DNA of 64,000 bases, taken from assembly GCA_035632695.1 (NCBI GenBank), contig DASQGG010000167.1, forward strand, positions 120 through 64,119. The letters run 5' to 3'. The notes under the pieces were generated by a model, which was given only the letters and a program-made list of their open reading frames with translations, did not search any database and was not told where the DNA came from. A program made the position numbers and the translations under genes. Shown here one piece after another: positions 25,266 to 51,892 of this stretch (position 1 is the stretch's first letter; the number at the start of each line of letters is the position of its first letter). Source of the DNA: Thermoplasmata archaeon (GTDB taxonomy: Archaea; Thermoplasmatota; Thermoplasmata; RBG-16-68-12).

Positions 25266-25778
25266 TCAACCGGGATCGGGCATGCGCTTCGGAATCACCC
25301 AGGGGACCTCGGCGGCGAACTCGAGCTGAACGACGGGCTTGTCGCGGAAGGGCTTCGGGGTGCGCGTGAGACGCGTCGTGAAGCCCATCCGGAACGTGGG
25401 CGTCAGGAATTCCGTGGCCTCGCGATCGTTCATCAGCCCCCCGCCCGGTTTCGGTTTCCAGAAATCCGAGCCGGACACGAGCTTCCCGATGAGCGCGAAG
25501 GATCCGGTGTAGAAGTACGTGTCGCGACCGAGCGGCTCGACGGGGATCACCTCCTGCTCCAGGGCCGGCGTAATACCGAGGCGCTGCATGAGGTCCGTCG
25601 CCTCGACCGGGTACGTGGTCGGGCGCGCCTGCGCGAAGTTCCGACAATGCACGCACCCGCAGAACTCGGGCCAACCGATGCCGATGCTCGCGTACGCGTC
25701 GTGCGTGCCGAGCGCGTCTGCGGCAAGCTCCCACCGGCGGAATCGGACGGTCTGCAGCCGCACGGTCCCGTGAACCAC
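25266..25778 (-). CDS. hypothetical protein
   Basis: 170-aa ORF (..GWPEFCGCVHCRNFAQARP..) with no recognised family. Its codon usage is consistent with its neighbours. Confidence 0.45.
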   Translation of the reverse strand: MVHGTVRLQTVRFRRWELAADALGTHDAYASIGIGWPEFCGCVHCRNFAQARPTTYPVEATDLMQRLGITPALEQEVIPVEPLGRDTYFYTGSFALIGKLVSGSDFWKPKPGGGLMNDREATEFLTPTFRMGFTTRLTRTPKPFRDKPVVQLEFAAEVPWVIPKRMPDPG

Positions 25779-25824: not shown

Positions 25825-26973
25825 CTACATGAGGTGCTCGGCGACGTACTCCGCGACGTCGCGGACCGCCAGGGGCGACGATGCGACCGTCTTCGAGCTG
25901 TCCTCGAGGTTCAGGACGCAGTAGGGGCACGCGGAGCAGAGCACCTGGGCGCCTGTCCGTTCTGCCTGGGTGACCCGGAGATCCGAGAACCGCTCCCCCC
26001 GGGGCGTCTCCAGGAAGATCCGCCCCCCGCCGCCTCCACAGCACAGGCTGTCGGTCCGGTTGCGCTCCATCTCCTCCAGGCGCACCCCGGGAATCGACTC
26101 CAGCACCTTCCGGGGCTCCTCGTACACCCCGTTGTACCGCCCGAGGTAGCAGGGGTCGTGGTACGTCACGCGGGCACCTCCGTACGTCTTGAGCTTGAGG
26201 CGGTCCTCGTCCGCGAGGCGGGCCAGGAGCTGCGTGTAGTGCTCCACCTCGAACGACGCCCCGAGCTTCGGGTACTCGTGCTTCAACGCCTCGAAGGAGT
26301 GCGGGCTGATCGTGACGATGCGTTCCACGCCACGCTCGCGGAACCGGGCCGCGTTCCGATCTGCAAGAGATCGGAAGAGGGCCGGGTCGCCGATCCGGAG
26401 TGCGGGGTCTCCGCAGCACGCCTCGTCGTTCCCGAGGGTCCCATACCTCACCCCGGCGGCGTCGAGGATCTTGACGAGCGCGCGGGCCACGGTCCGGATG
26501 CGGGGGTCGTACGCCGCCGTGCAGCCCACGTAGAGGAGGAGGTCCATGCCGGGCTCGAACGGGCGCACGGTCAGACCCTCCGCCCATCGGCTCCGTTCCT
26601 CAGGGTTCCCGCCCCACGGGTTCTGGACCGTGGACAGGCGGCCGAGGACCGTCTTCAGCGCGTCAGGTTCTGCGCCCACGGCGGTGACGAACTCCCGGGC
26701 CGTGCGGATCACGCTCGGGATGTCCACGCCGCGCGGGCATCGGGCGGTGCACGCACGGCACGTCGTGCAGAGCCACAGGAAGTCACCTTCGAGACCGCCG
26801 AGGCCGAGCTGGGTCAGGCGGAGCATCTTCCGCAGGCTCACGTCCCGGACCTCGCTCCACGGGCACGTGGCCGTGCACGTTCCGCACTGATAGCAGAGGT
26901 ACAGGGACGACCCGCCCGCTTTCCCGAGTTCGTCCATCATCTCGTCGAACGGGCGCACGGCCGTGGCGGTCAT
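25825..26973 (-). CDS. CCG-domain iron-sulfur oxidoreductase (GlcF / HdrD-like: 2x[4Fe-4S] ferredoxin motifs plus two cysteine-rich CCG domains)
   Basis: CxxCxxCxxxCP motifs are CYQCGTCTATCP and CTTCRACTARCP. CCG-domain hallmarks are YVGCTAAYDP, CCG, YHDPCYLGR, CCGGGGG and CPYC. Confidence 0.8.
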   Translation of the reverse strand: MTATAVRPFDEMMDELGKAGGSSLYLCYQCGTCTATCPWSEVRDVSLRKMLRLTQLGLGGLEGDFLWLCTTCRACTARCPRGVDIPSVIRTAREFVTAVGAEPDALKTVLGRLSTVQNPWGGNPEERSRWAEGLTVRPFEPGMDLLLYVGCTAAYDPRIRTVARALVKILDAAGVRYGTLGNDEACCGDPALRIGDPALFRSLADRNAARFRERGVERIVTISPHSFEALKHEYPKLGASFEVEHYTQLLARLADEDRLKLKTYGGARVTYHDPCYLGRYNGVYEEPRKVLESIPGVRLEEMERNRTDSLCCGGGGGRIFLETPRGERFSDLRVTQAERTGAQVLCSACPYCVLNLEDSSKTVASSPLAVRDVAEYVAEHLM

Positions 26974-27042
26974 GGGAGCACACTCCCGTCGGTGTCTCCC
27001 TTGCGGTGGGCCTCGGTTGCACGGTCCATGCGGCCGGTGGCA

Positions 27043-28554
27043 TCAGATGCGGAAGGAACTCCCAACGAATCGCCCCTCGATATCCGAGTGGAGGAGATGA
27101 GGACTGAACACGTTCGCGGGGTCGTACGTCGCCTTGAGGCGGCGCAGCTCCTCGTGGCGCGACGCGGTTCCGTCCCGGAAGAGCGCGAGGCCAAGCCCGT
27201 GTTCCTTGCGGTCCTCCACGGTGAGGTCGGTGCGCAGCACGGCCTCCCGAACCTTCTGGATGAGCGCCCACGCGGCCTCGATGTCCGCCTTCGTCACGGC
27301 CGCCTGCGGCCGGTAGTGGACCTCGATCCCGTCCGGGTAGTGGTGGCCTACGGGCCGCCCTGCGGCGCCCTCCATGGCTGCGAACATCCGCGAGAGGACG
27401 TCCCCGAACCGCTCCGGGTCGTACACGATGAAGTCCTCGCATCCGGGGACGTTCACGCGGTGGAGCGCCTTCCCCGTCGCCGCGGTCCGCACGGCCATCA
27501 TCTTCCGGAATTCTGGGAACGTGATCTCCCGGTAGCCGACGTCCGGGAATTCCGCCGCGATGCGGGGCAGCGGCTCCATGCCTTCCGTGCGTCCCCGGTA
27601 CAGCAGGACCATGCGGCGCCGGCCGGGCGTGACGGCGAAATAGGCGCCGAGGACCGGGTCCGTTCGGATCGGGTCGTCCGGCCGCACGATCCCTTCGTCG
27701 ATGAAGAGGAACTCGCCCGCGAAGTACCGGCAGGAGGCCGCGACCCGCTTCATCAGACGGCCCATGGTCGCACCGAGACGCCCGGCTTCCTCGGACTCGA
27801 TGGAAAGGATCGCGCACACCATGTCCTCCGGCTTCGGGATCGGGGCGATCCGAACGTCGAGTTCCGTGACGAGGCCACAGAGCCCGTGGTGGCCGGCGAG
27901 GCGTCGGATTTCCTTCCGGTCCGTGATCTCGAGGACGCGCGCGCCTTCCTTCGACGTTGCGACCATCCGGAGGCGGTTGACCGCGTCGCCGAAAGCGCCG
28001 AAGGCGGGAGTCCCGCTGCCTCGCGCGTTCGTCGCGAAGTTCCCGCCGAATGTGCTGTAGCCACTGCTCGGCACGACGGCCACGGTCCACGCGTACCTGG
28101 CGAGTGCTCGATTTGTCTCGTCGCTCGTCCGTCCCGCGCCGACGCGGACGTACAGCTCGTCCTCGGGTCCCGCGTTCGCCAGGTCGACGGCGCCCCCGTT
28201 CGCGTCCACGATCAGGGGCGTGAAGAGCCCGCGCCGGTGGCCGCGCGCATCGGTCGCACCGACCCGCTCCATGTCCACGAGGAGCGACCCGGGGGGCGCG
28301 ATGGCTGCCCCTGCGGTGCCCGACCCCGTTCCCCGAGGCACGAGCGCGACGCCATGCCGCACCGCATGTTCCGTGAGGGCCACGCACTCCGCCTCGTCCT
28401 TGGGGAAGGCGATCCGGGTGGGGACCCCGAGCGTGAGGAACGACGCGTCCGTGGCGTACCCCAGGAGCTCGCCCGCCTGATATGGGATCCTCGCCTCTCG
28501 GAGGAACGCCAACGTCGCGTCCTCCCGGCCTTGCTCGAGGGCGAGGGCAACCAA
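27043..28554 (-). CDS. FAD-linked oxidase (GlcD / D-lactate dehydrogenase family: FAD_binding_4 plus FAD-oxidase C-terminal domain)
   Basis: 503 aa with PCMH-type FAD-binding signature (VPRGTGSG..G) and the C-terminal GlcD-like domain ..EHGLGL.. It is operonic between two CCG Fe-S proteins, the classic GlcD-GlcF / Dld-LldF pairing. Confidence 0.85.
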   Translation of the reverse strand: MVALALEQGREDATLAFLREARIPYQAGELLGYATDASFLTLGVPTRIAFPKDEAECVALTEHAVRHGVALVPRGTGSGTAGAAIAPPGSLLVDMERVGATDARGHRRGLFTPLIVDANGGAVDLANAGPEDELYVRVGAGRTSDETNRALARYAWTVAVVPSSGYSTFGGNFATNARGSGTPAFGAFGDAVNRLRMVATSKEGARVLEITDRKEIRRLAGHHGLCGLVTELDVRIAPIPKPEDMVCAILSIESEEAGRLGATMGRLMKRVAASCRYFAGEFLFIDEGIVRPDDPIRTDPVLGAYFAVTPGRRRMVLLYRGRTEGMEPLPRIAAEFPDVGYREITFPEFRKMMAVRTAATGKALHRVNVPGCEDFIVYDPERFGDVLSRMFAAMEGAAGRPVGHHYPDGIEVHYRPQAAVTKADIEAAWALIQKVREAVLRTDLTVEDRKEHGLGLALFRDGTASRHEELRRLKATYDPANVFSPHLLHSDIEGRFVGSSFRI

Positions 28555-28558
28555 CCTC

Positions 28559-29716
28559 TCACCCCAGGGCTTGCGCGGCGAGGTCGGTCAGGTCGATGAT
28601 CTTCAGCGCGGGGAGGGGATCCACGGGCCGGCCGTCGAGGTAGCAGGAGAAGTGGATGCGACAGTGCGGGCACGCGGTGACCAGGTTCCCCGCCTTCGAC
28701 GCGGCTTCCTCGAGGCGCTCCTGCTGCAGGAACTTCGTCTGCGCGTCGCAATTCGAGTACGCCCCGACGCCGCAGCACATCGCGTTCTCCCGCACGCGGT
28801 CCATCTCGACCAGTGTGACGCCCGGGATCGCCTGCAGGACGGCCCGCGGTGCGTCGTACTCCCGGGAGTGGCGGCCGAGGCGGCAGGGATCCTGGTACGT
28901 GACCGTGAGGTCCACGGGCTTCGTGAACGCGAGCCGTCCCTCCTGGACGAGTTCCTGGATGAGCTGGGTCATGTGGAGGACCTCAATGGGCCACTCGCCG
29001 ACGACCTTCGGGTACTCGTACTTCAGCATGGAGTAGCACTCGGCGCATGTGGTCACGAGGCGCTTCGCGCCGCTCGCCCGGATCCACTCCGCGTTCCGGC
29101 GGGCCAGGGTCTCGAACGTCTCGCGGTCGCCGTTCCAGAGGGCGTCGTGGCCGCAGCACCGTTCCGCGTTCGCGACGACGGGCACGATCCCGGCCGCATT
29201 CATGATCTTGATCGCCGCCTTCCCGATCCGGGCGCTGTCGCAGTAGGAGAAGACGCCGTCGAGGTAGGGCATGCAGCCCGTGAAATAGATCACGTCGCCG
29301 GTGTCCGCGACCTTGAGCCCGTCCCCGATCCAGGCGCGGCGGTCCTGCTTCAGGTTCGGCTTCGCCATGATCTTGGCCAGGAGGTCCTTGTACCCACCGT
29401 GCTTGCACGGTGCGGTCCGCTCCCGGATGGGGCGCAACGCCTCCCGCTTCGCGCGGATGAACGCCGGGTACGGCACCTGGGTCGGGCAGACCGCCTGGCA
29501 CTCCCCGCACGTGAGGCAGGCCCAGAGGTCTCGCTCGCTCATGCCGTCCGCCCCGCCCAGGTACGCCCGGAGGACCACCTTGCGGGGGCTGAAGAGGACG
29601 TCTGCCCGGTGGACGGGGCAGCTCAGGGTGCACTTGTTGCACTGGATGCAGCCCTCCTGGGCCAGGATTCGCAGGGCGTCGTCCGGGCCAACCGTCGGGG
29701 ATGCGAGGGCCGCCAT
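28559..29716 (-). CDS. HdrD-like iron-sulfur protein (HdrC-type 2x[4Fe-4S] N-terminus fused to HdrB-type CCG domains)
   Basis: CIQCNKCTLSCP and CLTCGECQAVCP, then FTGCMPYLD, CCGHD, YQDPCRLGR, CCGVG and CPHC. The start is ATG at 29716, overlapping the mvhD stop in an ATGA overlap. Confidence 0.8.
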   Translation of the reverse strand: MAALASPTVGPDDALRILAQEGCIQCNKCTLSCPVHRADVLFSPRKVVLRAYLGGADGMSERDLWACLTCGECQAVCPTQVPYPAFIRAKREALRPIRERTAPCKHGGYKDLLAKIMAKPNLKQDRRAWIGDGLKVADTGDVIYFTGCMPYLDGVFSYCDSARIGKAAIKIMNAAGIVPVVANAERCCGHDALWNGDRETFETLARRNAEWIRASGAKRLVTTCAECYSMLKYEYPKVVGEWPIEVLHMTQLIQELVQEGRLAFTKPVDLTVTYQDPCRLGRHSREYDAPRAVLQAIPGVTLVEMDRVRENAMCCGVGAYSNCDAQTKFLQQERLEEAASKAGNLVTACPHCRIHFSCYLDGRPVDPLPALKIIDLTDLAAQALG

Positions 29717-30129
29717 CAGGCCACCTCCCGCAGGGGGCTCGGGCCAAGCTTCCGAAGGGTGTCCGTGAACTCGTTCGCGATTTCCGCGAACCGCGGTCCC
29801 TCCGAGCTCGAGGCCGCTTCCATCCGGAGCCGCTCGGGGCCGATGCCCAGCGTCCGGAGGACGCCCGAGAGACGGTCCGTCTGCTCGCGCGCCTGGACGT
29901 TCCCGCTCTTGTAGTGGCACGAACCCGGGTGGCAGCCCATCACGAGGACACCGTCGAACCCGCGCTCGAACGCCCGGAGGACGTAGTACGGGTCCACCAT
30001 GCCCGTGCACATGAGGCGGACGATCTTCACCGCGGACGGATACGGGATCTTCGCGGCGCCCGCCTGGTCTGCGGCGTTGTACCCGCACCAGTTGCAGCAG
30101 AGCGCGAGGATCTCGGGGTCGGCCGTCAT
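29716..30129 (-). CDS. mvhD: methyl-viologen-reducing hydrogenase delta subunit homologue (MvhD/FlpD [2Fe-2S] electron-transfer protein)
   Basis: 137 aa with LALCCNWCGY, CTGMVDP and MGCHPGSCHY, the diagnostic MvhD cysteine pattern. It lies directly downstream of hdrA. Confidence 0.85.
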   Translation of the reverse strand: MTADPEILALCCNWCGYNAADQAGAAKIPYPSAVKIVRLMCTGMVDPYYVLRAFERGFDGVLVMGCHPGSCHYKSGNVQAREQTDRLSGVLRTLGIGPERLRMEAASSSEGPRFAEIANEFTDTLRKLGPSPLREVA

Positions 30130-32129
30130 GGGGCCACCGCCTTCGGAGCGAGCGCGTCGATGGACGCGACGATCTGCGGCTTCGTGAACTGGCGCACGGT
30201 GATCGCGCCCGTGGGACAGACGACCGTGCACTTCCCGCATCCCTCGCACGAGGTCTCGTCCACGACCGCGACGAGCCCCTGCGGGTCGATGTGGACGGCG
30301 TCGAACTCGCACGCGTCCGTGCATCGGTCGCACGCGCGGCACAGATCCGGGTTCACCTCCGCGACGAGCGGGTTCAGGGTCATCTCGCCGCTCCCGAGGA
30401 ACGTCGCCGCGGACATCGCCGCGGCGCCGGCCTGCGCGATCGTGTCCGTGATGTCCTTGGGGCCCTGGGCGCAGCCCGCGACGAAGACGCCCTTCACCGC
30501 GGTGTCCGTGGGGTTGATCTTCGGGTGATATTCCTTCACGAACCCGTCCGCGGTCTTGTCGAGGTGGAGGGAGGCCAGGAGCCCGTCGACGTCTCCCGGC
30601 TCCATCGCGGTGCTCAGTACGACCATGTCCACCGGCACGCGGAGGGTGACACCCGCGAGCGTGTCCTCGACGACGATCATGAGCTTGCCCTGCTCCTCCG
30701 GCGACGTCGCGACGTCCGTCACCCGCGCGGGCTTCCCGCGGACGAACCCGACCTGCTCGGAGGCCACGCGCTGGTAGAACTCCTCGTATCCCTTCCCGTT
30801 CGCGCGCATGTCCATGTAGAAGTTGTACACGCGCGCCCCGGTCCGCTCGCGGATCAGATGGGCGTACTTCAGGGAGTACATGCAGCACACGCGCGAGCAG
30901 TACGGGCGGTACTTCTCGTCGCGTGAGCCGACGCAGTGGATGATCCCCACGGACGTCGGCGGCGTCCCGTCCTTCTTCACGAGCTTCCCACCGGTGGGTC
31001 CCGTGGAGGACAGGAGTCTCTCGATCTGCAGGCCATGGTACACGTCCGGATACGTCCCGAACCCGTAGTGCGCGACCTGCGTAGCGTCGAACGGACGGTA
31101 CCCCGTGGCGACGACGACCGCGCCCACCTCGACCTTGACTTCCTCCGGTTGCATGGAGAAGTCGATGGCGTCCGCGGGGCACACGTTCGCGCACATCCGG
31201 CACGCGCGGTTCCTCTGGAAGTAGAAGCAGTGGTCCGCGTCAATCGTCCAGAGTTGCGGGAGGGCCTGGGAGAACGGGAGGTAGATCGCCTTGCGGAGGT
31301 CGAGCCCCATGTTCCATTCGGATTCCACCTTGACCGGGCTCTTGGGCGTGCTCACGGGGCAGCGCTCCGTGCACCGATTGCACCCGATGCAGTCGTCCGT
31401 CACGTAGCGGGGCTTCTTGCGAACGGTCAGCGTGAACTTCCCCGGCGTGCGGACGGCATTCGTGACCTCGGCGTACGTGAGCAGCTCGACGTTCTTGTGG
31501 TTGAAGACCTGGTTCATCTTCGGGGAGAGGGTGCACATCGCGCAGTCCATCGTGGGGAACGTCTTGTCGAAGCGCGCCATGTTGCCGCCGATCGTGGGGC
31601 TCTTCTCGATGAGCGTGACCTTGTGCCCGGCATTGCCGAGCAGGATGGCCGCGTGGATCCCCGCGATCCCCGCACCGATCACTGCGACGCCCTCGTGGAT
31701 GGGGGCGATCTTCACCTCGAGAGCCCGGAGACGGAGGACCTTGGCGACCTGGGCTCCCACGAGGGCCTTCGCCTTCTCCGTCGCCTTCTCGGGCTGGGAC
31801 CGGTGGGCGTAGGCGCACTGCTCGCGCACGTTGGCGATCTCCAGGAGGTACGGGTTCATCCCCGCGTCCTTGGCGGTCTCGCGGAACATGTCCTCGTACA
31901 TCTTGGGGGTGCAGCATGCGACGACGACCCCGTCGAGTCCCTTCTCCTTGATCGTCTCCTGGAGCTGCGCCTGCCCCTGGTTCGAGCACATGAACCGGAA
32001 GTCCGTGGCGGCCACGACCCCGGCTTGCTTCGCGGCGAACTCCCGTAAGGCGTTGACATCGACGACGTCGGAGATGTTCCCGCCGCAATGGCAGATGAAG
32101 ACGCCGACCTTGCGTTCCCCGTCCGTCAC
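30126..32129 (-). CDS. hdrA: heterodisulfide reductase subunit A (HdrA flavoprotein)
   Basis: N-terminal Cys cluster FICHCGGNI, FAD Rossmann motif VAVIGAGIAGIHAAILL, several CxxCxxCxxxCP ferredoxin motifs (CIGCNRCTERCP, CRMCANVCP, CEGCGKCTVVCP) and a C-terminal Cys-rich region. GTG start at 32129 overlaps the hdrB stop (GTGA); 667 aa. Confidence 0.85.
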   Translation of the reverse strand: MTDGERKVGVFICHCGGNISDVVDVNALREFAAKQAGVVAATDFRFMCSNQGQAQLQETIKEKGLDGVVVACCTPKMYEDMFRETAKDAGMNPYLLEIANVREQCAYAHRSQPEKATEKAKALVGAQVAKVLRLRALEVKIAPIHEGVAVIGAGIAGIHAAILLGNAGHKVTLIEKSPTIGGNMARFDKTFPTMDCAMCTLSPKMNQVFNHKNVELLTYAEVTNAVRTPGKFTLTVRKKPRYVTDDCIGCNRCTERCPVSTPKSPVKVESEWNMGLDLRKAIYLPFSQALPQLWTIDADHCFYFQRNRACRMCANVCPADAIDFSMQPEEVKVEVGAVVVATGYRPFDATQVAHYGFGTYPDVYHGLQIERLLSSTGPTGGKLVKKDGTPPTSVGIIHCVGSRDEKYRPYCSRVCCMYSLKYAHLIRERTGARVYNFYMDMRANGKGYEEFYQRVASEQVGFVRGKPARVTDVATSPEEQGKLMIVVEDTLAGVTLRVPVDMVVLSTAMEPGDVDGLLASLHLDKTADGFVKEYHPKINPTDTAVKGVFVAGCAQGPKDITDTIAQAGAAAMSAATFLGSGEMTLNPLVAEVNPDLCRACDRCTDACEFDAVHIDPQGLVAVVDETSCEGCGKCTVVCPTGAITVRQFTKPQIVASIDALAPKAVAP

Positions 32130-33019
32130 GCCTTCACGACCTCCTGTGCCTCGAGCATCCCGATGACAGGGGCCACGCTGACCGTGTGGCGCCCCACGCC
32201 GAGGCGGCCCGGATCGATGCCGAACGCGAGCCCGGCGAGCTGGGGGAGATGGAGGATGGGCATGCCGATCCGCCGGCCTGCGGCCTTCGAGGCCTCCTTC
32301 TGATGCGCGTCGAGCACGAGGTGACAGAGTGGGCAAGGGGTCGCAAGCATCGTCGCACCCGCGTCCTTTGCCTCTGCGAGGGCCGCGCCGGACAACCGCG
32401 AGGTGAGGTCCTCGCTCACCGTCGGGGCATCGAACCCGCAGCAGGCGGTCCGGCCTCGGTACGGCAGCGGATTCCCGCCGAGGATCCGGACAAGGCGCTC
32501 AATCGATTTCGGGTCCGCAGGCGTGTCGAACGCCTCCGCACCAGGAGCCCGCAAGAGGCGGCACCCGTAGAACGCGCCCACCGCGACGTCGCCGAGCGGT
32601 CGCCGCACGTGGGCCGCGAGCTTCTTCTCGCCGACGTCCTGCAGCAGGACCTGGAGGAGATGTTTGACCCGAACGCCACCGCCGTAGGCGCTCGGTCCCG
32701 CCCGTCCCAGGGCGTGGTTGATCCTCGCGCGTGTATCCGGGTCCTCGAGGGCCTGCGCGGCTTCGGACAGGTAGAGCTGGCACGCGCCGCACACGGTGAG
32801 GATGTCGAGCCCCTTGGCCTGTGCCAGGGACAGGGTGCCGGCGTTCGCCGCCAGGGCGCGTTCGGGCTCCGTCCGTTGGAGGTCCCCCGCGCCGCAACAC
32901 GCGGCGCCCTCTAGGTCGACGAGTTCGATCCGGAGTTCCTTCGCCACCGCGCGCGTGGACTCGTCGAGCTCCTCGCACTCATCCTGCGCCGCGCACCCCG
33001 GGAAATACGCAAATCTCAT
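32126..33019 (-). CDS. hdrB: heterodisulfide reductase subunit B (HdrB; two CCG domains)
   Basis: MRFAYFPGC N-terminus, CCGAG, YGCR, CCGFD and CPLCH, typical of HdrB. The protein is 297 aa from ATG 33019. Confidence 0.85.
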   Translation of the reverse strand: MRFAYFPGCAAQDECEELDESTRAVAKELRIELVDLEGAACCGAGDLQRTEPERALAANAGTLSLAQAKGLDILTVCGACQLYLSEAAQALEDPDTRARINHALGRAGPSAYGGGVRVKHLLQVLLQDVGEKKLAAHVRRPLGDVAVGAFYGCRLLRAPGAEAFDTPADPKSIERLVRILGGNPLPYRGRTACCGFDAPTVSEDLTSRLSGAALAEAKDAGATMLATPCPLCHLVLDAHQKEASKAAGRRIGMPILHLPQLAGLAFGIDPGRLGVGRHTVSVAPVIGMLEAQEVVKA

Positions 33020-33305
33020 GGGAATTCCTCCAAGGCGGCGAGCGTTGATCCCCTGCCGGCTCGGCGTGCAACGCCGCGTGACCTCGAGGCGACTCCGGGC
33101 CAGAACTCGGGAGCCACCGAACGAGGGGATGTCAGCTCCATCGCTCCCGCCATCCTGTGGGCGTCGACCCTCCGGACGCCGGATATAGCTAAGGTACGTA
33201 CTGCACGTGTAATCCCTGGACGCGTCCACTGGAGGATCGACAGGAAGACGCACGGGCTCGGAAGGCGCCGGATGCGGGGCCATCCGCACGGTGGGTGCGC
33301 GTCCG

Positions 33306-33313
33306 TTAAATAT
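33306..33313 (+). promoter_or_regulatory. TATA box (TTAAATAT) about 25 nt upstream of the larA-like ATG (33337); leaderless
   Basis: The same octamer precedes rps3ae. It lies in the 300-bp divergent intergenic region between hdrB and the larA-like gene. Confidence 0.5.
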
Positions 33314-33336
33314 CGCGTCCCGCGTTGTGGCGACCC

Positions 33337-34797
33337 ATGGTGGCGAAGAGCATCGCGGCGCAAGTGCCCCGCCTCGCGTACGGGGATCGCTTCCTATCCG
33401 ACTTCCTCCCGGATCGCGTCCTGTCCGAGGGCCGACTCGTTCCGCTGCGGACGCCCGAAGGTGCGCCCGCGGTGCCGGACGTGGCGGTCGCCCGGCGGCA
33501 AGCGCTCGAGGTGTCCTCGACGCCGGACCTGGTCCCTGCCCTGAACGAATGGCTCGTCTCCCGGTACCGCGGCGGGGATGTCGCGGTCATAATCGACGAC
33601 TACGCGCGGCCGTGCGCCCACCAACGTCTCCTCCTGCCCGGCCTCCTCGAGTGGCTCCAGGCCCACGGCGTCAAGCGGGAGCGGATCGCCTTGATCATCG
33701 CCGCGGCGACCCACCGGGACCCGAAACCGGAGGAGTGGCCGTACATGCTCGGGGACAAGCTGTGGCCCGCCTGGAAGGACCGCGTGTTCTTCCATCACGA
33801 CCGCGAGGACCTCGAGAAGCTCGGCGCGATGCCCGACGGCACGCCCATCGAGCTGAACGGACGGGCCGCCCGCTCGGAGCTCATCCTCTCCCTGTGCGAC
33901 CTCGACTACCACTACTTCGCCGGCGTGAGCGGAGGGCCGAAGCACCTGGTGCCCGGGATTGCGGGGCGGGCGCTCACGACCGCGGACCACCTCCGGATGT
34001 TCGGCGAGCTTGGGTTCGCGCCCCACGTGGACATGGGCATCCTAGACGGCAACCCGGTGTACGAGTACAAGCGCGCGGCCGTGCGGATCGTCCTGGACGC
34101 GCTCCGGGCCCGCGGGAGCTTCGTCTACGCCGTGGTCTGCGTCCTGAACCCTGCGTACCAGGTGGTTGCGCTCCAGGGCGGCGATATCGTCGCCGTCCAC
34201 CGGAGGCTGCGGCACGACCTCGACAAGGTGTACGCCGCGTCGATCCCGCGGCTCGCGGACATCGCGATCGTGACGGCACGCCACCTGGGGATCAACGTCT
34301 ATCAGGCCGGGAAGGCGATCAACGCCGCGGCGCGTGCCGTGAAGCCGGGCGGGACCGTGGTCTGCGTGGCCCCATGCCCGGACGGGTTCGGGAACGAGGA
34401 GTTCCGAAACCTGATGAAGATCGCGGCCCCCGTGCTCCAGGAGGCGGACGACCTGATCGCCCTAGGTGGGGATCCTGCCAAGCTAGGTCCCGAGGCGATC
34501 GACCGCGCCCTGCGGGCGGTCCAGAAGGTCGTCATGGCGGACTTCAAGATCGGGAAGCAGAAACCCGTGGACATGCTCGTCCAGTACCGCCGCACAGGCT
34601 GGGGACACCTGTGGCTCCTGTGCGACGGGCTCACGGACGAGGAGCGCAAGTTGCTCCCCTTCCGCTACGTCGGCAAGCGCGGCGAGGACCCGCAGACGCG
34701 CCTACAAGCCTGGGTCCGGGACCAGGAGAGGAACGGCAAGCCCACGTATCTGATCGTCGACGACCCTACGTACTGGATTCAGCTCAAAGGCGCGTAA
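33337..34797 (+). CDS. larA: lactate racemase (LarA) family protein, DUF2088-type nickel-pincer enzyme homologue
   Basis: 486 aa. N-terminal DUF2088-like region and central HYFAGVSGGPKHLVPGIAG (LarA-type H..G.SGG.K) are present, with several conserved His/Asp candidates. It is adjacent to lactate dehydrogenase-like genes. Family-level confidence only. Confidence 0.65.
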   Translation: MVAKSIAAQVPRLAYGDRFLSDFLPDRVLSEGRLVPLRTPEGAPAVPDVAVARRQALEVSSTPDLVPALNEWLVSRYRGGDVAVIIDDYARPCAHQRLLLPGLLEWLQAHGVKRERIALIIAAATHRDPKPEEWPYMLGDKLWPAWKDRVFFHHDREDLEKLGAMPDGTPIELNGRAARSELILSLCDLDYHYFAGVSGGPKHLVPGIAGRALTTADHLRMFGELGFAPHVDMGILDGNPVYEYKRAAVRIVLDALRARGSFVYAVVCVLNPAYQVVALQGGDIVAVHRRLRHDLDKVYAASIPRLADIAIVTARHLGINVYQAGKAINAAARAVKPGGTVVCVAPCPDGFGNEEFRNLMKIAAPVLQEADDLIALGGDPAKLGPEAIDRALRAVQKVVMADFKIGKQKPVDMLVQYRRTGWGHLWLLCDGLTDEERKLLPFRYVGKRGEDPQTRLQAWVRDQERNGKPTYLIVDDPTYWIQLKGA

Positions 34798-34820
34798 GCC
34801 CGGATTCGGAGGCCGCGCGT

Positions 34821-36140
34821 CTACCCCGCCAGTTCCATGTACTTCGCGATTTCGTCCCAGTTCCACGAGCCCCCCGATTTCGGGCTCGGCTTGAGATGAT
34901 CCAGGTCCCCGCGGTTGGCGAGGCGGTCCACGAGGTACGCGGCGAACGCGGGAGAGCCCGTGGCCCCCGGGGAATTGTAGTTCAAGATGTGGTACGAGTG
35001 GGGTCCGGGCACCTCGATGGCTTCTTTCACGATCCCCCCGCGGCGGTTGACCACCGGAGTGCGGATGCCCGCGGTCCCCGGCGAGACGAGGTGCGCGAGC
35101 CTCAACCCGGGCAGGAACCGCTGCACGCGCTGCAGCATGGCCTCCTTGGAGACTGAGCTCCACATCTCTTGGGTGGCCAGGCTCAGGAAGTCCTTGTCGA
35201 GCATGAGGCGGACCTTGTTGAAGATCGGCGGCTCGAAGAACTTCGCGAACCACGGGCCCATGGGTCGGAACAGCCCATCGTAGGACGCCGGCCCGGAGAC
35301 AGGCACGGCGTTCGGCCCGATCTCCCGCCGGCCGTTCGCGCGGATCACCCAGTGTGGATCAAGGAACGGAAGGTCCGTGTGCCGCGGAACCGAGTAGACA
35401 TTGTGCCGGACGAGGTCCGCGGCGTGCGCGTCGATCGTCCAGTACTCGCCTCGGAAGTGCATGTCCGTGTACTCCAGCGCGACCCCCATCGCGTGGGCGA
35501 GGTCGATCGCGCTCCCGCCCGCGCAGCCGATCAGGAATCCGGCGCGAACGGGCTCGTTCGCCCCATCCACGCGGACTTCGATGCCCGAGTCCGACGCGAG
35601 GACGGAGGTCGCGTCCGCGCCGGTGAGGAACCGGACCCCGAGCGCCTCCGCATCCGCCTTGACCGATTCCGTGAACGCCTGGTAGTCCACGGCCGTGTCC
35701 GTCCTCGAGAACAGGGCGCCCTCGCACCGAACGTTCGGTTCCCGACGCGCCATCTCGCGTCTGTCGAGGAGCTCGACCTCGGAGGGCGCCATCCCGTTTT
35801 CCGCGGCGTAGCCCACGTACGCCCCCAGGTGGGACATCTGCCCGTCCTCGAGCGCCACCTCGTAGGTTCCGATCTCGTACCACGGGAGCCCCTTCGTCGC
35901 GGCGTACTTCTTCCAGAGATGATACGAAATGCCGGCCGCACGGGCGAAGATTCTCGCCTTCGCAGGATTCAGGTAGAACGGCCGGTGGACGACGCCCGTG
36001 TTCCGCCGGCTCGCATGCAGGGCCACGTCGCGCTCCTTCTCCAGGACGACGAACCGGCCGTCGTAGCGGGCCGCGAGCCAGTAGGCGACGGAGGTGCCGA
36101 GGATTCCGCCTCCCACGATGGCGACGTCCCAGGGTTCCAT
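34821..36140 (-). CDS. FAD-dependent oxidoreductase, L-2-hydroxyglutarate oxidase/dehydrogenase-like (LhgO/YgaF family, DAO superfamily)
   Basis: N-terminal dinucleotide-binding motif WDVAIVGGGILGTSVAYWL, a length of 439 aa, and DAO-family C-terminal elements. Confidence 0.75.
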   Translation of the reverse strand: MEPWDVAIVGGGILGTSVAYWLAARYDGRFVVLEKERDVALHASRRNTGVVHRPFYLNPAKARIFARAAGISYHLWKKYAATKGLPWYEIGTYEVALEDGQMSHLGAYVGYAAENGMAPSEVELLDRREMARREPNVRCEGALFSRTDTAVDYQAFTESVKADAEALGVRFLTGADATSVLASDSGIEVRVDGANEPVRAGFLIGCAGGSAIDLAHAMGVALEYTDMHFRGEYWTIDAHAADLVRHNVYSVPRHTDLPFLDPHWVIRANGRREIGPNAVPVSGPASYDGLFRPMGPWFAKFFEPPIFNKVRLMLDKDFLSLATQEMWSSVSKEAMLQRVQRFLPGLRLAHLVSPGTAGIRTPVVNRRGGIVKEAIEVPGPHSYHILNYNSPGATGSPAFAAYLVDRLANRGDLDHLKPSPKSGGSWNWDEIAKYMELAG

Positions 36141-36194
36141 GAGGGTCCTGCGGTCTCCGCAACCAAGCGCGGCTTATTAGGACTGCGACAACGA

Positions 36195-37280
36195 CTACGG
36201 ACCGGTCCAAGGTACGCGCAGATCGGAACCGATTTGCTTCAGGTTCTCGGCGACCTTCGGAGAGAGCGGGATGCCTTCCTTCCGGTATTTCTCCATGCGC
36301 GCGAAGCTCTTCTCGCCCGCGACGTAGATGCGCGTCTGGCCCTCCGCCTTCGGGCTGTCCTTGAGCTCGCGGGCGAGGCGGTCCATGTCCCGCTTGAACT
36401 CCTCCAGCGGCCGAAACGCTCCCGGATCGATCGCCAGGAAGAAGTGACCCACGTCCGGACGCTTTTCGTCCGCGTAGACCTGGAGCCCCGTGGCCGCGCC
36501 GGGGAGGACTCCCGAGAGGACGTCGACCAAGAGGGCGAGCCCGTAGCCCTTGTGGCCTCCGAGTTCCTCGCCCTCGCCTCCGAGGGGCAGGAGGCCGCCG
36601 CCGAGACGCTTGGACAAGGCGTTCAGGACGCGGGCCGCGTCCGAGGTGCTCTTCCCGGTTTCGTCCACCGCCCAGCCGTGCGGCATAGGCTTGCCCGCCC
36701 GGTTGTAGACCTCGACCTTGCCCCGCGGGACCGTCGCCGTGGCCATGTCGAAGACGAAGGGCGTCTCGTGCGACGTCGGCGCGGTGATGCTGATCGGGTT
36801 CGTCCCGAGGACGGCCGATCGGCCGAACGTGGGCACGACGAGCGGCGCGGCGTTCGTCATGCTCATTCCGATCAGATCGTGCTCGAGCGCCATCAAGGAA
36901 TAGTACCCGGCGATGCCGTAGTGATTCGAGTTCCTCACGGTCACGACGCCGACCGCGGTCTCTTTGGCCTTCCGGATCGCGAGCTCCATGCCCTTCTTGC
37001 CGACGACCTGCCCGAGGCTCTGCGCCCCGTCGAGCAGCGCGGTGGCCTTCGTCTCCCGGACGATCGTGCTGTGGTCCGTGGGCTTCATGTAGCCTTCCTG
37101 GAGCCCGCTCACGTACCGCTGGAGCCGCGCGACGCCGTGGCTCTCGATGCCGCGAAGGTCCGCAAGGACGAGGACGTCCGTCGTCACGCCCGCGTCGTCC
37201 GCCGGCACCCCGAGCTTCATGAGGACTTGTTCGCAGAAGCTCCTGAGAGGCTTCTCCTGGATGAGAATCTTGTCCGCCAT
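36195..37280 (-). CDS. Ldh_2-family malate/L-lactate/L-sulfolactate dehydrogenase (type-2 MDH/LDH, ComC-like)
   Basis: 361 aa from ATG 37280 (MADKILIQEKPL..). Conserved Ldh_2 motifs are GIESHGV, NSNHYGIAGYY, GTNPISIAAP and GHKGYGLAL. Confidence 0.8.
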   Translation of the reverse strand: MADKILIQEKPLRSFCEQVLMKLGVPADDAGVTTDVLVLADLRGIESHGVARLQRYVSGLQEGYMKPTDHSTIVRETKATALLDGAQSLGQVVGKKGMELAIRKAKETAVGVVTVRNSNHYGIAGYYSLMALEHDLIGMSMTNAAPLVVPTFGRSAVLGTNPISITAPTSHETPFVFDMATATVPRGKVEVYNRAGKPMPHGWAVDETGKSTSDAARVLNALSKRLGGGLLPLGGEGEELGGHKGYGLALLVDVLSGVLPGAATGLQVYADEKRPDVGHFFLAIDPGAFRPLEEFKRDMDRLARELKDSPKAEGQTRIYVAGEKSFARMEKYRKEGIPLSPKVAENLKQIGSDLRVPWTGP

Positions 37281-40942: not shown

Positions 40943-41602
40943 TCACGGGTGGCTTTGCGCTCCAACGTAGGGAGCCCGAACGGCCTTCGCGCGGCGGCGC
41001 AGGCCCGGTCCGAGGGGAATCGTTCCTGCCCCCAGGTTCGAGTTGGTGACGATGGCGAAGCTCGTGTACGCAGCGGCGGTGGCCGAGAAGATGCCGAAGT
41101 AGCCTCCCGCCGTCGTCGCCATCGTGCTGGGAAGCACGTCGCCCAGGCCCAGGAACACGAAGGCCAGCCACAGGAAGAGGAACGTCAGGTTCAGGGAGAG
41201 GTTCGCGAACATCGCGGGGATCCACATGTAGAAGGTGAAGATCCCGTAGAGCAGCAGGGCCGTCCCCACGGCGACCGCGGGCGGCGCGATCAGGCCCATC
41301 TTCTCTAGGAGGACGAGGCTTCCGAAGAAGAGCCAGAAGGCCCCGTAGCTACTGAAGGCCGTGAATCCGAAGGTGTTCCCCTTGCGCATCTCGAACACAC
41401 CCGCCAGGAGTTGGCCCAGCCCCCCGTAGAACAGCGCCAGGGGGACAACGACGCCCACCGCGCTCGCGCCGAGCCATCCGGTGTTCACGAAGCTGAGAAG
41501 GAACGTCGTGAACGCGAAGCCGGCCAAGCCGAGGGGCGCGGGGTCTGCCAGGAGGGCTTTCTCGTTCAGACTCGTCGGCGAAGGCGCAGTCATTTGACTC
41601 AT
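40943..41602 (-). CDS. acetate uptake transporter, GPR1/FUN34/YaaH (SatP/AceTr) family
   Basis: Family signature NPAPLGL-GFA-TT is present as [20 protein letters not shown], with six TM helices in 219 aa. It is divergent from acs. Confidence 0.8.
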
Positions 41603-41837
41603 CCTGATCCACCTCGTTTCATCAGGTCCGCCGCATCCGTTGGCGGGCTCCGTCGGCCCGTTCAGCCCTTGCCGGGTAAGGAGCTATGGAAAATACCCTA
41701 CGGGACGAGTGCGCGAGGCGCCCGGCCGCGAGCTGCGCGGGAATCCGCTCACGCTATATACTTTCTATGGATTGTGCTTGACCAGCCCTTATAAAAGAGG
41801 GCATCGCCTGGAACGATTCCGAACCGGGGTCGCGACC

Positions 41838-43799
41838 ATGGTTGTGTCCAGTGCCACCATCGACAGCCTGCTCAAGGAAAAGGAACAGTATCCTCCGTCG
41901 GACGACTTCCGCCGCCGCGCCCTGGTCAAGGACGACGCCGTCTATGCGCAGGCGGCCAAGGACCCGGAGGGGTTCTGGGCCAGGCAGGCGGAACAGTACC
42001 ACTGGATCCGGAAGTGGGACAAGGTCCTCGAATGGGACGCGCCGTTCGCGAAGTGGTTCGTCGGCGGGAAGATCAACGTCTCCGAGAACTGCCTGGACCG
42101 CCAGGTGCACTCGGAGCGGCGGAACAAGGCCGCGATCGTGTGGGAAGGCGAACCCGGCGACAAGAAGGTCTTCACGTACTACCAGCTGTGGCGCGAGGTG
42201 AACAAGTTCGCGAACGTCCTGAAGTCTCTAGGCGTGAAGCGCGGGGATCGGGTCACGATCTACATGCCCATGATCCCCGAGCTGCCCATCGCAATGCTCG
42301 CGTGCGCCCGGATCGGGGCGCCCCACAGCGTGATCTTCGGCGGCTTCAGCTCCAAGGCGATCCACGACCGTGCGTCGGACGCGGAGTCCGCGATCATCGT
42401 CACCGCGGACGCGGGGTACCGCCGCGGCAGCCTCGTCCCGCTCAAGAAGACCGTGGACGAGGGGATTGCGGACCTGCCCAGCGTGAAGCACGTGGTCGTA
42501 TTCAAGCGCGCGACCGGCGATTGCGCGATGAAGGAGGGCCGCGACGTCTGGTGGCACGACCTCATGGCCCACGCAGACCCCTGGTGCGAGCCCGAGCCCA
42601 TGGACGCCACGGACCCGCTCTTCGTCCTGTACACGTCGGGCACCACGGGCAAGCCCAAGGGGATCGTCCACTCCACGGGCGGCTACCTCGTCGGCGTCGC
42701 GGCGACCCAGCGGATGATCTTCGCCCTGCGCGAGGATGACTTCTACTGGTGCACGGCGGACATCGGCTGGGTCACGGGGCACTCGTACATCGTGTACGGC
42801 CCCCTGGCGAACGGCGCGACGTCCTTCATCTACGAGGGCGCCCCCGACTTCCCGAAGCAGGACCGCTGGTGGTCCCTCGTGGAGGACTACGGCGTCACGA
42901 TCATGTACACGGCCCCGACCGCGATCCGCGCGTGCATGCGCTGGGGCGACGACTGGCCCAAGGCGCACGACCTGTCCACTCTGCGGCTCCTGGGGACCGT
43001 GGGCGAGCCCATCAACCCGGAGGCGTGGCGGTGGTACTACAGGAAGATCGGCGGCTCCCGCTGCCCCGTCGTGGACACGTGGTGGCAGACGGAGACGGGC
43101 ATGATCCTGATCACGCCCCTCCCCGCGGTCGGGCCCCAGAAGCCTGGGTCGGCCACGTTCCCGTTCCCGGGCGTGAGCGCGGAGGTCGTCGACGAAACCG
43201 GACAGCGCGCGGGCGTGAACCGCGGCGGCTACCTCGTGATCACGAAGCCATGGCCCGCGATGCTCACGACGATCTACAAGGACCCGGAGCGGTACAAGGC
43301 CACGTACTGGTCCCAGATCAAGGGCAAGTACTTCACCGGGGACGGGGCGCGCGTGGACGAGGACGGCTACTTCTGGCTCATGGGTCGCATCGACGACGTG
43401 ATCAACCTCGCGGGCCACCGGATCGGCACCATGGAGGTCGAGTCCGCCCTCGTGAGCCATCCCAAGGTCGCGGAGGCCGCGGTCGTTGGGAAGCCGGACC
43501 AGCTCAAGGGCCAGGTCCTCGTGGCCTACGTGGTCCTGAAGACGGGCCAGGAACGGTCCGAGGCGCTCAAGGACGAGCTCAAGAAGCACGTGCGTAAGGA
43601 GATCGGCCCCATCGCCGCCCCGGAGGCGATCTACATCACGGACAAGCTCCCGAAGACTCGCAGCGGGAAGATCATGCGGCGCGTGATCCGCGCCCTCGTG
43701 AGCGGCCAGGAGATCGGCGACACGACCACCCTGGAGGATCCCGGCGCCGTCGAGGAAGTCCGGAAGTGGCTCGCCGCCGTGGAGGGGAAGGCTCCTTAG
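41838..43799 (+). CDS. acs: acetyl-CoA synthetase (AMP-forming)
   Basis: 653 aa. The AMP-binding motif is [11 protein letters not shown], with WWQTETG and the acetylatable lysine motif [11 protein letters not shown] near the C-terminus. Confidence 0.9.
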
Positions 43800-43806
43800 G
43801 TCCGAC

Positions 43807-48921: not shown

Positions 48922-49025
48922 GACCGCAGTTTGATTTCGGTTCGTCGCCTTTCGTTTTGGGACGACCCAAAATCGCCGGAATACGTGCCAAAGGCTTATG
49001 GTCCCGTCGTGAATCCAGTCGGCTC

Positions 49026-50735: not shown

Positions 50736-50736
50736 C

Positions 50737-51492: not shown

Positions 51493-51496
51493 ACGC

Positions 51497-51892
51497 ATGG
51501 TGGAAGTGCGAGAGGCTCGATGGCGACGCCCCGCGGGCTGGTGGGCCCACAACCGGCGGTACCTGCTCTTCATGCTCCGCGAGGCGGGCGGCTCCCTGTC
51601 CGCGGTCTACGGGATCATCCTGCTCGGCCTCCTGATCATGGACCACCAGGGTCCCGGCGCGTACGCGAACTACCTCGCGTTCCTCCAGACGCCCGCGATG
51701 CTCGTCGTGCAGGGCGTCATCCTTGCGTTCGTCCTCATCCACGCGGTCACGTGGTTCTACCTGATCGGCAAGAGCCAAGCCGCCATGTCCGCGTACCGTG
51801 CCCCGTCGTGGACCCGGATCTTGACCCTGATGATCGTGGTCTTCCTGGCCGCGTCGGTCGGCGTGCTGTACGTCGTGTTCGGAGGCGTGTGA
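51497..51892 (+). CDS. sdhC: succinate dehydrogenase membrane anchor / cytochrome b subunit
   Basis: 131-aa three-TM protein immediately after sdhB, with a His in TM2 (LIHAVTWFY) as a candidate heme ligand. Confidence 0.7.
   Translation: MVEVREARWRRPAGWWAHNRRYLLFMLREAGGSLSAVYGIILLGLLIMDHQGPGAYANYLAFLQTPAMLVVQGVILAFVLIHAVTWFYLIGKSQAAMSAYRAPSWTRILTLMIVVFLAASVGVLYVVFGGV

Follow-up and report, generated by a model that had tools for sequence, protein, structure and literature searches.

We analysed a stretch of 64,000 nucleotides from contig DASQGG010000167.1 of a Thermoplasmata archaeon (this whole stretch is referred to as the window). It contains an island in which genes for subunits of heterodisulfide reductase (Hdr) and for the adaptor MvhD share one operon with a gene for a FAD_binding_4 flavoprotein, called FADox here. 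Next to the operon lie genes for a LarA homologue, for a DAO-type flavoprotein resembling L-2-hydroxyglutarate dehydrogenase (L2HGDH) and for an Ldh_2-family dehydrogenase (Table 1). Genes were called from codon-position GC content together with Pfam and NCBIfam matches, and their starts were checked on the sequence. GC content of the window is 67%, third codon positions (GC3) are very rich in GC and long spurious open reading frames (ORFs) are abundant; the frame of mvhD differs from that of these ORFs, and the gene is visible only after translation of its own frame. The initial annotation had described a minus-strand string of hdrB, hdrA, mvhD, an HdrD-like gene, an FAD oxidase gene and a GlcF-like gene together with the flanking genes, and Pfam and NCBIfam recovered all of them with the domains named there. 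Its end points also proved exact, being the stop of the GlcF-like gene (25825) and the ATG of Ldh_2 (37280).

Table 1. Genes and features of the island, in window coordinates
Feature	Position	Strand	Description
Ldh_2	36195-37280	-	361 aa counted from ATG at 37280; PF02615
DAO/L2HGDH-like (LhgO-like) flavoprotein	34821-36140	-	439 aa; PF01266
LarA homologue	33337-34797	+	486 aa, long archaeal type; Lar_N + LarA_C; divergent from hdr operon
Conserved intergenic block, putative promoter/operator	33181-33212	-	32 nt, TTACACGTGCAGTACGTACCTTAGCTATATCC on hdr strand
hdrC remnant	33016-33141	-	41 codons, Cys-free
hdrB	32126-33019	-	297 aa; two CCG domains (PF02754 x2)
hdrA	30126-32129	-	667 aa; GTG start
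mvhD	29716-30129	-	137 aa; PF02662
HdrD-like #1	28559-29716	-	385 aa; Fer4 + two CCG domains
FADox (FAD_binding_4 flavoprotein)	27043-28554	-	503 aa; TTG start; PF01565
HdrD-like #2 (GlcF-like of the initial annotation)	25825-26973	-	382 aa; Fer4 + two CCG domains

Genes of the hdr operon are closely packed. Read on the sequence, hdrB and hdrA share a GTGA overlap, hdrA and mvhD an ATGA overlap, and mvhD and hdrD #1 a 1-nt overlap (TGATG); hdrD #1 and FADox are separated by 4 nt. The tight coupling ascribed to the entire string therefore holds up to FADox and not beyond it, as 69 nt separate FADox from HdrD-like #2. Beyond HdrD-like #2, on the same strand and after 46 nt, follows a further ORF of 170 aa (25266-25778, minus strand), which has coding-like GC3 and no Pfam or NCBIfam match. 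On the other side, larA is indeed divergent on the plus strand, as had been described. The LhgO-like and Ldh_2 genes, said to follow it, lie instead on the minus strand as a co-directional pair with a 54-nt gap, converging on larA with 23 nt between the stops. Since this pair is separate and convergent with larA, the island consists of three transcription units, not two.

The conserved intergenic block upstream of the hdrC remnant contains the palindromes CACGTG and GTACGTAC; some 40 nt ahead of the remnant's ATG it also has a TATA-like TTAGCTATAT. It is the same in the window and in a related locus, L012 (loci are denoted by L numbers), and its translated form is the same in L003; it looks like a putative shared promoter/operator of the hdr operon. 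For larA, a TATA-like TTAAATAT is found at 33306-33313. Purifying selection works on all genes of the island (dN/dS 0.12-0.31). Because the same order also recurs in independent assemblies of two domains of life, the arrangement is, judged by sequence comparison, not due to chance.

Relatives were collected as contigs encoding HdrA or FADox relatives and by a FADox-profile scan of one genome per GTDB species, and the loci were mapped by tblastn. The core order hdrC-hdrB-hdrA-mvhD-hdrD-FADox is colinear in every locus long enough, about 20 genomes altogether. The module is borne by eight Thermoplasmata-type contigs and by one contig without assignment, L004 (HdrA 55% identical). Bacterial metagenome-assembled genomes (MAGs) with the module are assigned to Bacteriovoracaceae, Deltaproteobacteria, Desulfobacterales/Desulfobacteraceae, Myxococcales, NC10, Pseudomonadota and Pseudomonadales, the marine Pseudomonadales module being present on a TARA Oceans scaffold as well. 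The composition had been thought unusual for an archaeon; what we find is a conserved module of Thermoplasmata and several bacterial phyla. In all bacterial modules HdrA has about 1130 aa, carries Fer4_20 and Pyr_redox_2 domains (HdrL-type) and is followed by mvhD; HdrA of the window is of the short archaeal type, without fused MvhD or NAD(P) domain. HdrB is 42-43% identical to bacterial module copies and 35% to non-module copies, and HdrD-like #1 is 47% identical to bacterial module copies, 55% to that of L004 and 29-33% to non-module HdrD-like proteins. Since both are closer to module than to non-module copies, the module, or at least its HdrB/HdrD/FADox part, appears to have been inherited as a unit across domains.

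FADox adjoins the module in every sampled context whose contig extends upstream of FADox, and in two loci, L010 and L021, two unrelated genes sit between hdrD and FADox. One contig of archaeal type, L018 (DPMS01000176.1), is labelled as "Actinomycetota bacterium UBA9676"; its proteins are 72-92% identical to those of the window and it shows the same loss of hdrC described below, so that it is probably a mis-binned contig. Another one, L013, is labelled as "uncultured Methanomassiliicoccales". Directly after the module of L004 (15088-17682) lies a gene for an 864-aa YdiJ/Dld-like fusion of FAD_binding_4, FAD-oxidase_C, Fer4 and CCG domains, which represents a second, conventional hydroxyacid dehydrogenase beside FADox.

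FADox itself is poorly described by existing models. It matches PF01565 (E 1e-15), its FAD-oxidase_C domain stays below threshold (19.9 versus 21.2 bits), and it scores 42.3 bits with the GlcD model TIGR00387, whose cut-off is 567.9, and weakly with the YdiJ model (E 3e-9). A word-indexed search of 5.8 billion clusters returned only 112 relatives, descending to bacterial proteins of 35-42% identity, where the list ends. In an exhaustive profile search of 1.84 billion (1.84e9) representatives, seven proteins were found at E<=1e-30, three of them full-length 50%-identity clusters and the remainder fragments. At the next full-length proteins the score drops from 627 to 120 bits. As far as these searches can tell, the FADox family is small and sharply isolated.

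An AlphaFold (AF2) model of FADox built from a 30-sequence alignment reached a predicted local distance difference test score (pLDDT) of 87.9 and a predicted TM-score (pTM) of 0.87. Its best Foldseek matches in the Protein Data Bank (PDB) are FAD-dependent D-lactate dehydrogenases (9qit/9qgz). Also ranking high are mouse LDHD, LctD of the Ldh-EtfAB complex and human D-2-hydroxyglutarate dehydrogenase (D-2-HGDH), interleaved with alkyl-dihydroxyacetonephosphate synthase and cytokinin oxidases. With the hydroxyacid enzymes (9qit, 8jde, 7qh2_C, 6lpn), TM-scores are 0.63-0.69 at 15-22% identity. In a profile alignment the invariant E451-H452-G-x-G of FADox coincides with the EHG motif of 9qgz and LctD, and H404, H413, R356, R366, E451 and H452 are invariant in the family. 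In human D-2-HGDH, H434, H441, E475 and H476 act as Zn ligands and catalytic base and an arginine binds the C1-carboxylate, residues of this kind defining 2-hydroxyacid use in the subfamily (PMC7801405). The two histidines are spaced by 9 residues in FADox versus 7 in the human enzyme. A likeness between R356-x3-T360/H413-x-R415 and R386-x3-T390/H441-x-N443 of D-2-HGDH is speculative, and we did not use it as evidence. We conclude that FADox is an enzyme of the D-2-hydroxyacid dehydrogenase type which stands outside GlcD, D-lactate dehydrogenase and D-2-HGDH proper.

HdrA, HdrB and MvhD are homologous to subunits of solved Hdr complexes. HdrA aligns with methanogen HdrA 8rvu over its full length (residues 4-660, 616 bits) and contains 29 cysteines, including three CxxCxxCxxxC motifs and CAMC at 196-199; it stays below the NCBIfam equivalog cut-offs for HdrA and HdrA2 (769 versus 1100 bits for the latter). 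HdrB matches 5odc_B with 170 bits, all Cys motifs of both non-cubane cluster sites being aligned, and scores 184 bits with TIGR03288 (cut-off 345). Its dN/dS of 0.28-0.31 is the highest in the cluster (0.12-0.23 in the other genes) yet still that of a constrained gene. MvhD, a [2Fe-2S] adaptor of the MvhD/FlpD type, matches PF02662 over the full profile length (E 9e-49). In HdrD-like #1, an HdrC-like domain with two [4Fe-4S] clusters is fused to two complete CCG domains and all Cys motifs are intact; we regard it as the probable module-specific partner of FADox.

One core gene is missing. With four HdrC proteins as queries, tblastn detected no hdrC between hdrB and larA in the window. What is left is the 41-codon remnant. 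It keeps the hdrC start, where it can be aligned with L012 and L018, as well as an ATGA overlap with hdrB, and has lost both [4Fe-4S] Cys motifs by internal deletion. A comparable Cys-free remnant, of 48 codons, is present in L018, which is the closest relative; hdrC is intact in L001 and L012. Since two independent assemblies agree, the deletion is, to all appearances, real. The hdrC of L003, which gives a two-frame match, was considered as a pseudogene and rejected, the break being a run of N in the scaffold and not decay.

HdrD-like #2 had been taken for a GlcF-like protein. With the GlcF model, whose cut-off is 333 bits, it scores only 50.8 bits and HdrD-like #1 scores 58.5, the architecture of Fer4 and two CCG domains being generic among HdrD-like proteins. 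It is 47% and 42% identical to proteins encoded directly upstream of hdrA in L005 and L006, two unrelated Hdr clusters, and its first CCG domain has SPHS in place of the CxxC pair. By these comparisons it belongs to the HdrD family adjoining hdrA in other genomes, to whose members it is orthologous, and not to GlcF. It is restricted to a subclade with at least 83% FADox identity, which includes members retaining hdrC. It is plausible that a fused protein of the HdrCB type was gained first and made HdrC dispensable.

Genes flanking the operon point to its possible substrate. The LarA homologue keeps the equivalents of D72, R75, H108, H174, K184, H200, Y294, Q295 and K298 in motifs DxxR, HR, H...SGGxK, H and YQxxK, as judged from alignments to Mar2, to broad-spectrum LarA and to the family (residue list from PMC7583248). 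In the PDB it comes closest to malate racemase Mar2 (6d6z, E 5e-33), and among NCBIfam models to malate racemase LarAH6 (195 versus 500 bits); it reaches 156.5 bits with the lactate racemase model NF033504 (cut-off 460) and misses every NCBIfam cut-off. The substrate loop reads H-Y-F and a glycine precedes the catalytic lysine (K298). Lactate racemase is marked by an F175-F176 loop and V297, malate racemases by Y-K and Q (PMC7583248), and the signature seen here fits no characterised group described in that work. The protein represents a 486-aa archaeal subtype with a C-terminal insertion, its homologues likewise having 486 aa. A distant relative of this long type adjoins a conventional GlcD-type flavoprotein in L033, and LarAH groups have been reported to be associated with COG0277 and COG0247 (PMC7583248).

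The DAO protein (PF01266, E 2e-45) scores 212.8 bits with NCBIfam LhgO (cut-off 299), the next family reaching 102 bits, and its best PDB match is 8w75 (FI05204p, E 3e-27), which we take to be Drosophila L2HGDH. It is thus closest to L-2-hydroxyglutarate oxidases/dehydrogenases; its gene stands beside the module only in Thermoplasmata loci. Ldh_2 matches its domain over full length (PF02615, E 8e-128, 426.6 bits versus cut-off 38.8). Its best solved relative is the type-2 malate dehydrogenase of Pyrococcus horikoshii (1v9n, E 5e-106), followed by sulfolactate dehydrogenase of Methanocaldococcus jannaschii (2x06). It stays below the equivalog cut-offs, missing ComC (300 versus 500 bits) and likewise AllD. 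A role in coenzyme M (CoM) biosynthesis by way of a ComC-like Ldh_2 was set aside, given the missed ComC cut-off and the presence of the module in bacteria that are not known to make CoM.

Five archaeal loci (the window, L001, L003, L012 and L018) and five bacterial ones (L009, L019, L021, L024 and L027) have Ldh_2 immediately upstream of the module. A LarA homologue accompanies it in all ten except L021, where the contig ends. In bacteria both genes lie on the module strand and abut hdrC. Because archaeal and bacterial LarAs are only 22-26% identical and differ in their substrate loops, the comparison indicates that racemases of different LarA subfamilies have been independently recruited to the same module. 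In Pseudomonadales loci a SerA-like gene (2-Hacid_dh and ACT domains) follows FADox; SerA is known to give rise to D-2-hydroxyglutarate (PMC9504171). The flanking genes would thus tie the module to a chiral 2-hydroxyacid without preference for lactate, a dicarboxylic substrate (2-hydroxyglutarate or malate) being at least as likely. The proposed link between Hdr and 2-hydroxyacid enzymes is borne out by the FADox fold, the intact LarA residues and the presence of Ldh_2 and LarA beside bacterial modules too.

MvhD acts as adaptor from the input dehydrogenase to the HdrA flavin in those Mvh-Hdr and Fdh-Hdr complexes whose structures have been solved. Gene order mvhD-hdrD-FADox parallels mvhD-mvhG-mvhA, and in L006 mvhD is followed by genes for the small and large subunits of a hydrogenase; for this reason we consider FADox and HdrD-like #1 a candidate MvhD-linked substrate module, taking the place of hydrogenase (MvhAG) or formate dehydrogenase. 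We infer that the island encodes an Hdr-type flavin/Fe-S complex served by FADox and HdrD-like #1 with a D-2-hydroxyacid, with confurcation as its likely mode, and give this reading a probability of roughly 0.55. Electrons would pass from the D-2-hydroxyacid to FAD of FADox, to the clusters of the HdrD-like protein, to the [2Fe-2S] cluster of MvhD and to FAD of HdrA, and from there to or from ferredoxin and a CCG-domain site in HdrB or HdrD-like #2. The flanking enzymes would supply substrate or keep its pool in balance: L- and D-forms would be interconverted by the LarA homologue, and the L-form handled by the NAD(P)-linked, L-specific Ldh_2 together with the L2HGDH-like flavoprotein.

Energetics bear on the direction of such a reaction. 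Midpoint potentials are about -170 to -190 mV for 2-oxoacid/2-hydroxyacid couples, -400 to -500 mV for ferredoxin, about -140 mV for the heterodisulfide of coenzymes M and B (CoM-S-S-CoB) and -320 mV for NAD(P)H. The initial annotation had envisaged coupling of 2-hydroxyacid oxidation to ferredoxin or another low-potential acceptor. With a donor at about -190 mV, forward bifurcation to ferredoxin works only if the second acceptor lies at about +100 mV or higher, which a disulfide does not, and is doubtful. Confurcation or simple transfer is more plausible, because such a donor cannot drive ferredoxin reduction with a disulfide as partner. In confurcation, hydroxyacid and reduced ferredoxin would jointly reduce an acceptor of intermediate potential, which might be NAD(P)+ in bacterial HdrL versions and a disulfide or another substrate of the CCG site in the archaeal version.

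The same argument weakens the more specific view that the island oxidises D- and L-lactate by bifurcation, LarA racemising lactate, a GlcD/GlcF-type pair oxidising D-lactate and HdrA passing electrons to ferredoxin and a second acceptor. Among the best structural matches of FADox there are indeed D-lactate dehydrogenases, as well as LctD from the bifurcating Ldh-EtfAB, and the Y-F loop of the LarA homologue is bulky and hydrophobic like F-F of LarA. Coupling of lactate oxidation to the reduction of heterodisulfide has moreover been suggested for HdrD/GlcD pairs (PMC10667645). An acetate-handling unit with a SatP-type carboxylate channel and acetyl-CoA synthetase lies 3.6 kb from the island (40943-45753); these genes are not conserved beside the module in relatives, and no lactate permease was found. 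LarA, GlcD and GlcF scores all fall far under their cut-offs, the best LarA relatives are malate racemases and the signature is Y-F/G, not F-F/V, and the neighbours are L2HGDH-like and of the type-2 malate/sulfolactate dehydrogenase kind. Taken together with the potential of the donor, this leaves lactate bifurcation an unlikely explanation, and the assignment of lactate as the substrate finds no support.

Could the electrons flow the other way, reduced ferredoxin and/or thiols converting a 2-oxoacid to the D-2-hydroxyacid, from which LarA and Ldh_2 would regenerate the oxoacid with NAD(P)+, so that the net result is transfer from ferredoxin to NAD(P)H? On paper, such a cycle is closed by the L-specific, NAD(P)-linked Ldh_2 in company with a racemase and the D-specific flavoenzyme; it is exergonic and would work without HdrC and HdrB. 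HdrB, however, is still under purifying selection, flavin-dependent D-2-hydroxyacid dehydrogenases normally work oxidatively, and the shuttle would be redundant in bacteria, whose HdrL already has an NAD(P)-binding domain. We find this reductive shuttle improbable.

Several points weigh against a confurcating complex fed by a D-2-hydroxyacid. Identity of FADox to solved D-2-hydroxyacid dehydrogenases is merely the 15-22% given above, and because its C-terminal domain alone finds no PDB match by sequence, mapping of its active site onto D-2-HGDH is partial. Energetics of coupling hydroxyacid to ferredoxin hang on the third substrate. In solved complexes electrons travel between HdrA and HdrB through HdrC; here its gene is deleted, and the canonical HdrB branch may be broken. 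No larBCE genes, which serve biosynthesis of the NPN cofactor of LarA, were found within the window. Finally, Ldh_2 and LarA are accessories and not obligatory parts, since six module loci lack both. No further recurrent partner was found in the flanks of four bacterial loci of this kind (L020, L026, L028 and L031). In one of them, L031 (Desulfobacteraceae), a 369-aa ORF (860-1969, minus strand) lies 1.2 kb upstream of hdrC, its N-terminus resembling, by eye, the mandelate racemase/muconate-lactonizing enzyme family.

Two independent systems might also share one operon, FADox and the HdrD-like protein forming a GlcDF/YdiJ-like D-2-hydroxyacid dehydrogenase with quinone or another acceptor, and HdrA-MvhD-HdrB a separate thiol/disulfide-ferredoxin enzyme. 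The island would then hold an ordinary hydroxyacid dehydrogenase beside an orphan Hdr. Fused FAD_binding_4-Fer4-CCG enzymes such as YdiJ of Escherichia coli indeed work without HdrA (PMC9504171), a YdiJ-like fusion sits beside the module in L004, and unrelated genes part hdrD from FADox in L010 and L021. On the other hand, colinearity is strict and genes are translationally coupled by overlaps and the 4-nt gap across two domains, and FADox was not seen outside the module in any examined locus extending upstream. Moreover, mvhD is placed precisely between hdrA and hdrD-FADox, and the only role known for MvhD is that of an adaptor linking HdrA with an input dehydrogenase. We therefore see slim chances for two separate enzymes.

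Comparison with known systems shows what is shared and what is new. In MvhAGD-HdrABC and FdhAB-MvhD-HdrABC of methanogens (5odc, 8rvu, 7bkb), HdrA, HdrB and MvhD are homologous to those of the island and mvhD likewise lies beside the genes for the presumed input. Here, however, the input would be a VAO-type flavoprotein with an HdrD-like protein instead of [NiFe] hydrogenase or formate dehydrogenase, only a Cys-free remnant is left of hdrC, an HdrD-like gene is added and the window offers no methanogenesis context. For HdrD/GlcD pairs of Archaeoglobus, Bathyarchaeia, Methanomethylicia, Methanomassiliicoccales and Korarchaeia, a function as lactate:heterodisulfide oxidoreductases has been proposed, their role in non-methanogens being acknowledged as puzzling (PMC10667645). 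As in those pairs, a FAD_binding_4 dehydrogenase gene adjoins an HdrD-like Fer4+CCG gene. Unlike them, the pair described here is embedded in an hdrA-mvhD-hdrB operon, not alone or with Fpo, involves an isolated flavoprotein family (627 versus 120 bits) and has LarA, Ldh_2 and L2HGDH-like partners.

Ldh-EtfAB (LctBCD) of Acetobacterium woodii (7qh2) provides a thermodynamic template, lactate and reduced ferredoxin reducing NAD+ by confurcation. In both cases a flavoprotein with the fold of GlcD-type D-lactate dehydrogenase would couple to a bifurcating module, with HdrA/HdrL-MvhD replacing EtfAB here. Bacterial HdrL forms possess the NAD(P) domain which such a reaction requires, the archaeal HdrA having none. 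As no ETF domains occur in the island or the window, Ldh-EtfAB serves as an analogy only. E. coli YdiJ (a D-2-hydroxyglutarate dehydrogenase) and GlcDEF share the combination of a FAD_binding_4 dehydrogenase with Fer4/CCG parts; they are not associated with HdrA/MvhD, and the genes of the island are separate and score far below the curated cut-offs. With the LarA superfamily of lactate, malate (Mar1/Mar2) and 2-hydroxyglutarate racemases, the LarA homologue shares the Lar_N and LarA_C domains and all catalytic and NPN-binding residues. HdrL of Desulfobacterium autotrophicum is described as a fusion of HdrA with glutamate synthase bearing an NADH site (PMC2702500), a description which the bacterial module HdrA fits and the short HdrA of the window does not; the HdrL loci described there are linked to dsr and other genes, and term searches of that paper gave no FADox/HdrD pair.

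The host is evidently an archaeon, as had been assumed. The same HdrA (100% identity) is encoded in a "Thermoplasmata archaeon" MAG and an 89% identical one in "Euryarchaeota archaeon RBG_19FT_COMBO_69_17", and the window encodes the archaeal markers ribosomal protein S3Ae, a proteasome subunit and a FEN1-type nuclease. A haloarchaeal origin, which the GC content of 67% had suggested, was rejected, as the proteins are not acidic (D+E about 11-13%) and HdrA matches those of Thermoplasmata MAGs. Neither mcr, mtr, fwd and CoM/CoB synthesis genes nor dsr, apr, etf and larBCE were found within the 64-kb window, and genes for hydrogenase and formate dehydrogenase are likewise missing from it, in agreement with the initial annotation, which had noted the lack of methanogenesis genes. 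These data bear on one more explanation, namely that the island encodes the usual heterodisulfide reductase with which a methanogen or methanotroph reduces CoM-S-S-CoB. HdrA, HdrB and MvhD are homologues of methanogen subunits at the 45-50% level and the related contig L013 is labelled Methanomassiliicoccales. Against this stand the absence of mcr, mtr and fwd, the deleted hdrC, the lack of an adjacent hydrogenase or formate dehydrogenase, the same module in the non-methanogens Pseudomonadales, NC10 and Myxococcales, and the placement of RBG-16-68-12/RBG_19FT relatives in clades described as non-methanogenic. It is extremely improbable that the island encodes such an enzyme.

Flavin-based electron bifurcation has its archetype in enzymes of the Hdr type, for which few experimentally characterised input modules are known (using H2, formate, F420H2 or NADH via Flx). 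That HdrD/GlcD pairs link lactate to heterodisulfide is established as a genomic hypothesis; what the island would add is an Hdr complex whose input module is of a new type. No description of the operon, the FADox family or the Hdr-LarA link was found in full-text literature, subscription-only papers being outside its coverage, and papers on "Ca. Yaplasmales" (RBG-16-68-12) mention Mvh/Hdr merely generically. With its six genes and its signature flavoprotein family the module is a well-defined candidate open to experimental test, and it occurs not only in uncultured Thermoplasmata but in bacteria such as marine Pseudomonadales and NC10 too. If FADox and HdrD-like #1 do serve Hdr with a D-2-hydroxyacid, an organic-acid-driven Hdr would join the bifurcating/confurcating enzymes, nickel-pincer racemases of the LarA type would become tied to energy metabolism, and the variant lacking hdrC would show which parts of Hdr wiring are dispensable. 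Going further, FADox-HdrD-MvhD-HdrA/HdrL-HdrBC might constitute an unrecognised class of bifurcating/confurcating enzymes, coupling a D-2-hydroxyacid/2-oxoacid pair to ferredoxin and to a third acceptor, which would be a disulfide or other CCG-site substrate in archaea and NAD(P)+ in bacteria. Marked by a flavoprotein family of just three 50%-identity clusters among 1.84 billion representatives, the class would have spread by horizontal transfer between Bacteria and Thermoplasmata, with repeated recruitment of LarA racemases from different subfamilies and, in the lineage of the window, with HdrC deleted after gain of a fused HdrCB-type protein. This broader proposal is tentative; if it is true, deletion of HdrC following that gain would be a natural rewiring of the high-potential branch.

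Several neighbours of the island deserve mention in their own right. A succinate dehydrogenase/fumarate reductase operon (48960-52357, plus strand) has anchors matching Fumarate_red_C and Fumarate_red_D of the E. coli type (FrdABCD-like), which is unexpected for a Thermoplasmata-type archaeon. Genes for a VWA-domain protein (603 aa), a 142-aa ORF without family match and a small GTPase of the Ras/Roc family (220 aa) stand in a row at 216-3259 (plus strand). Large NosD/beta-helix/PKD and BNR proteins are encoded at 8239-10752 and 17055-19382, and a giant ORF of 1939 aa (58115-63934, minus strand), with matches only to CARDB and DUF5915, probably encodes a surface protein.

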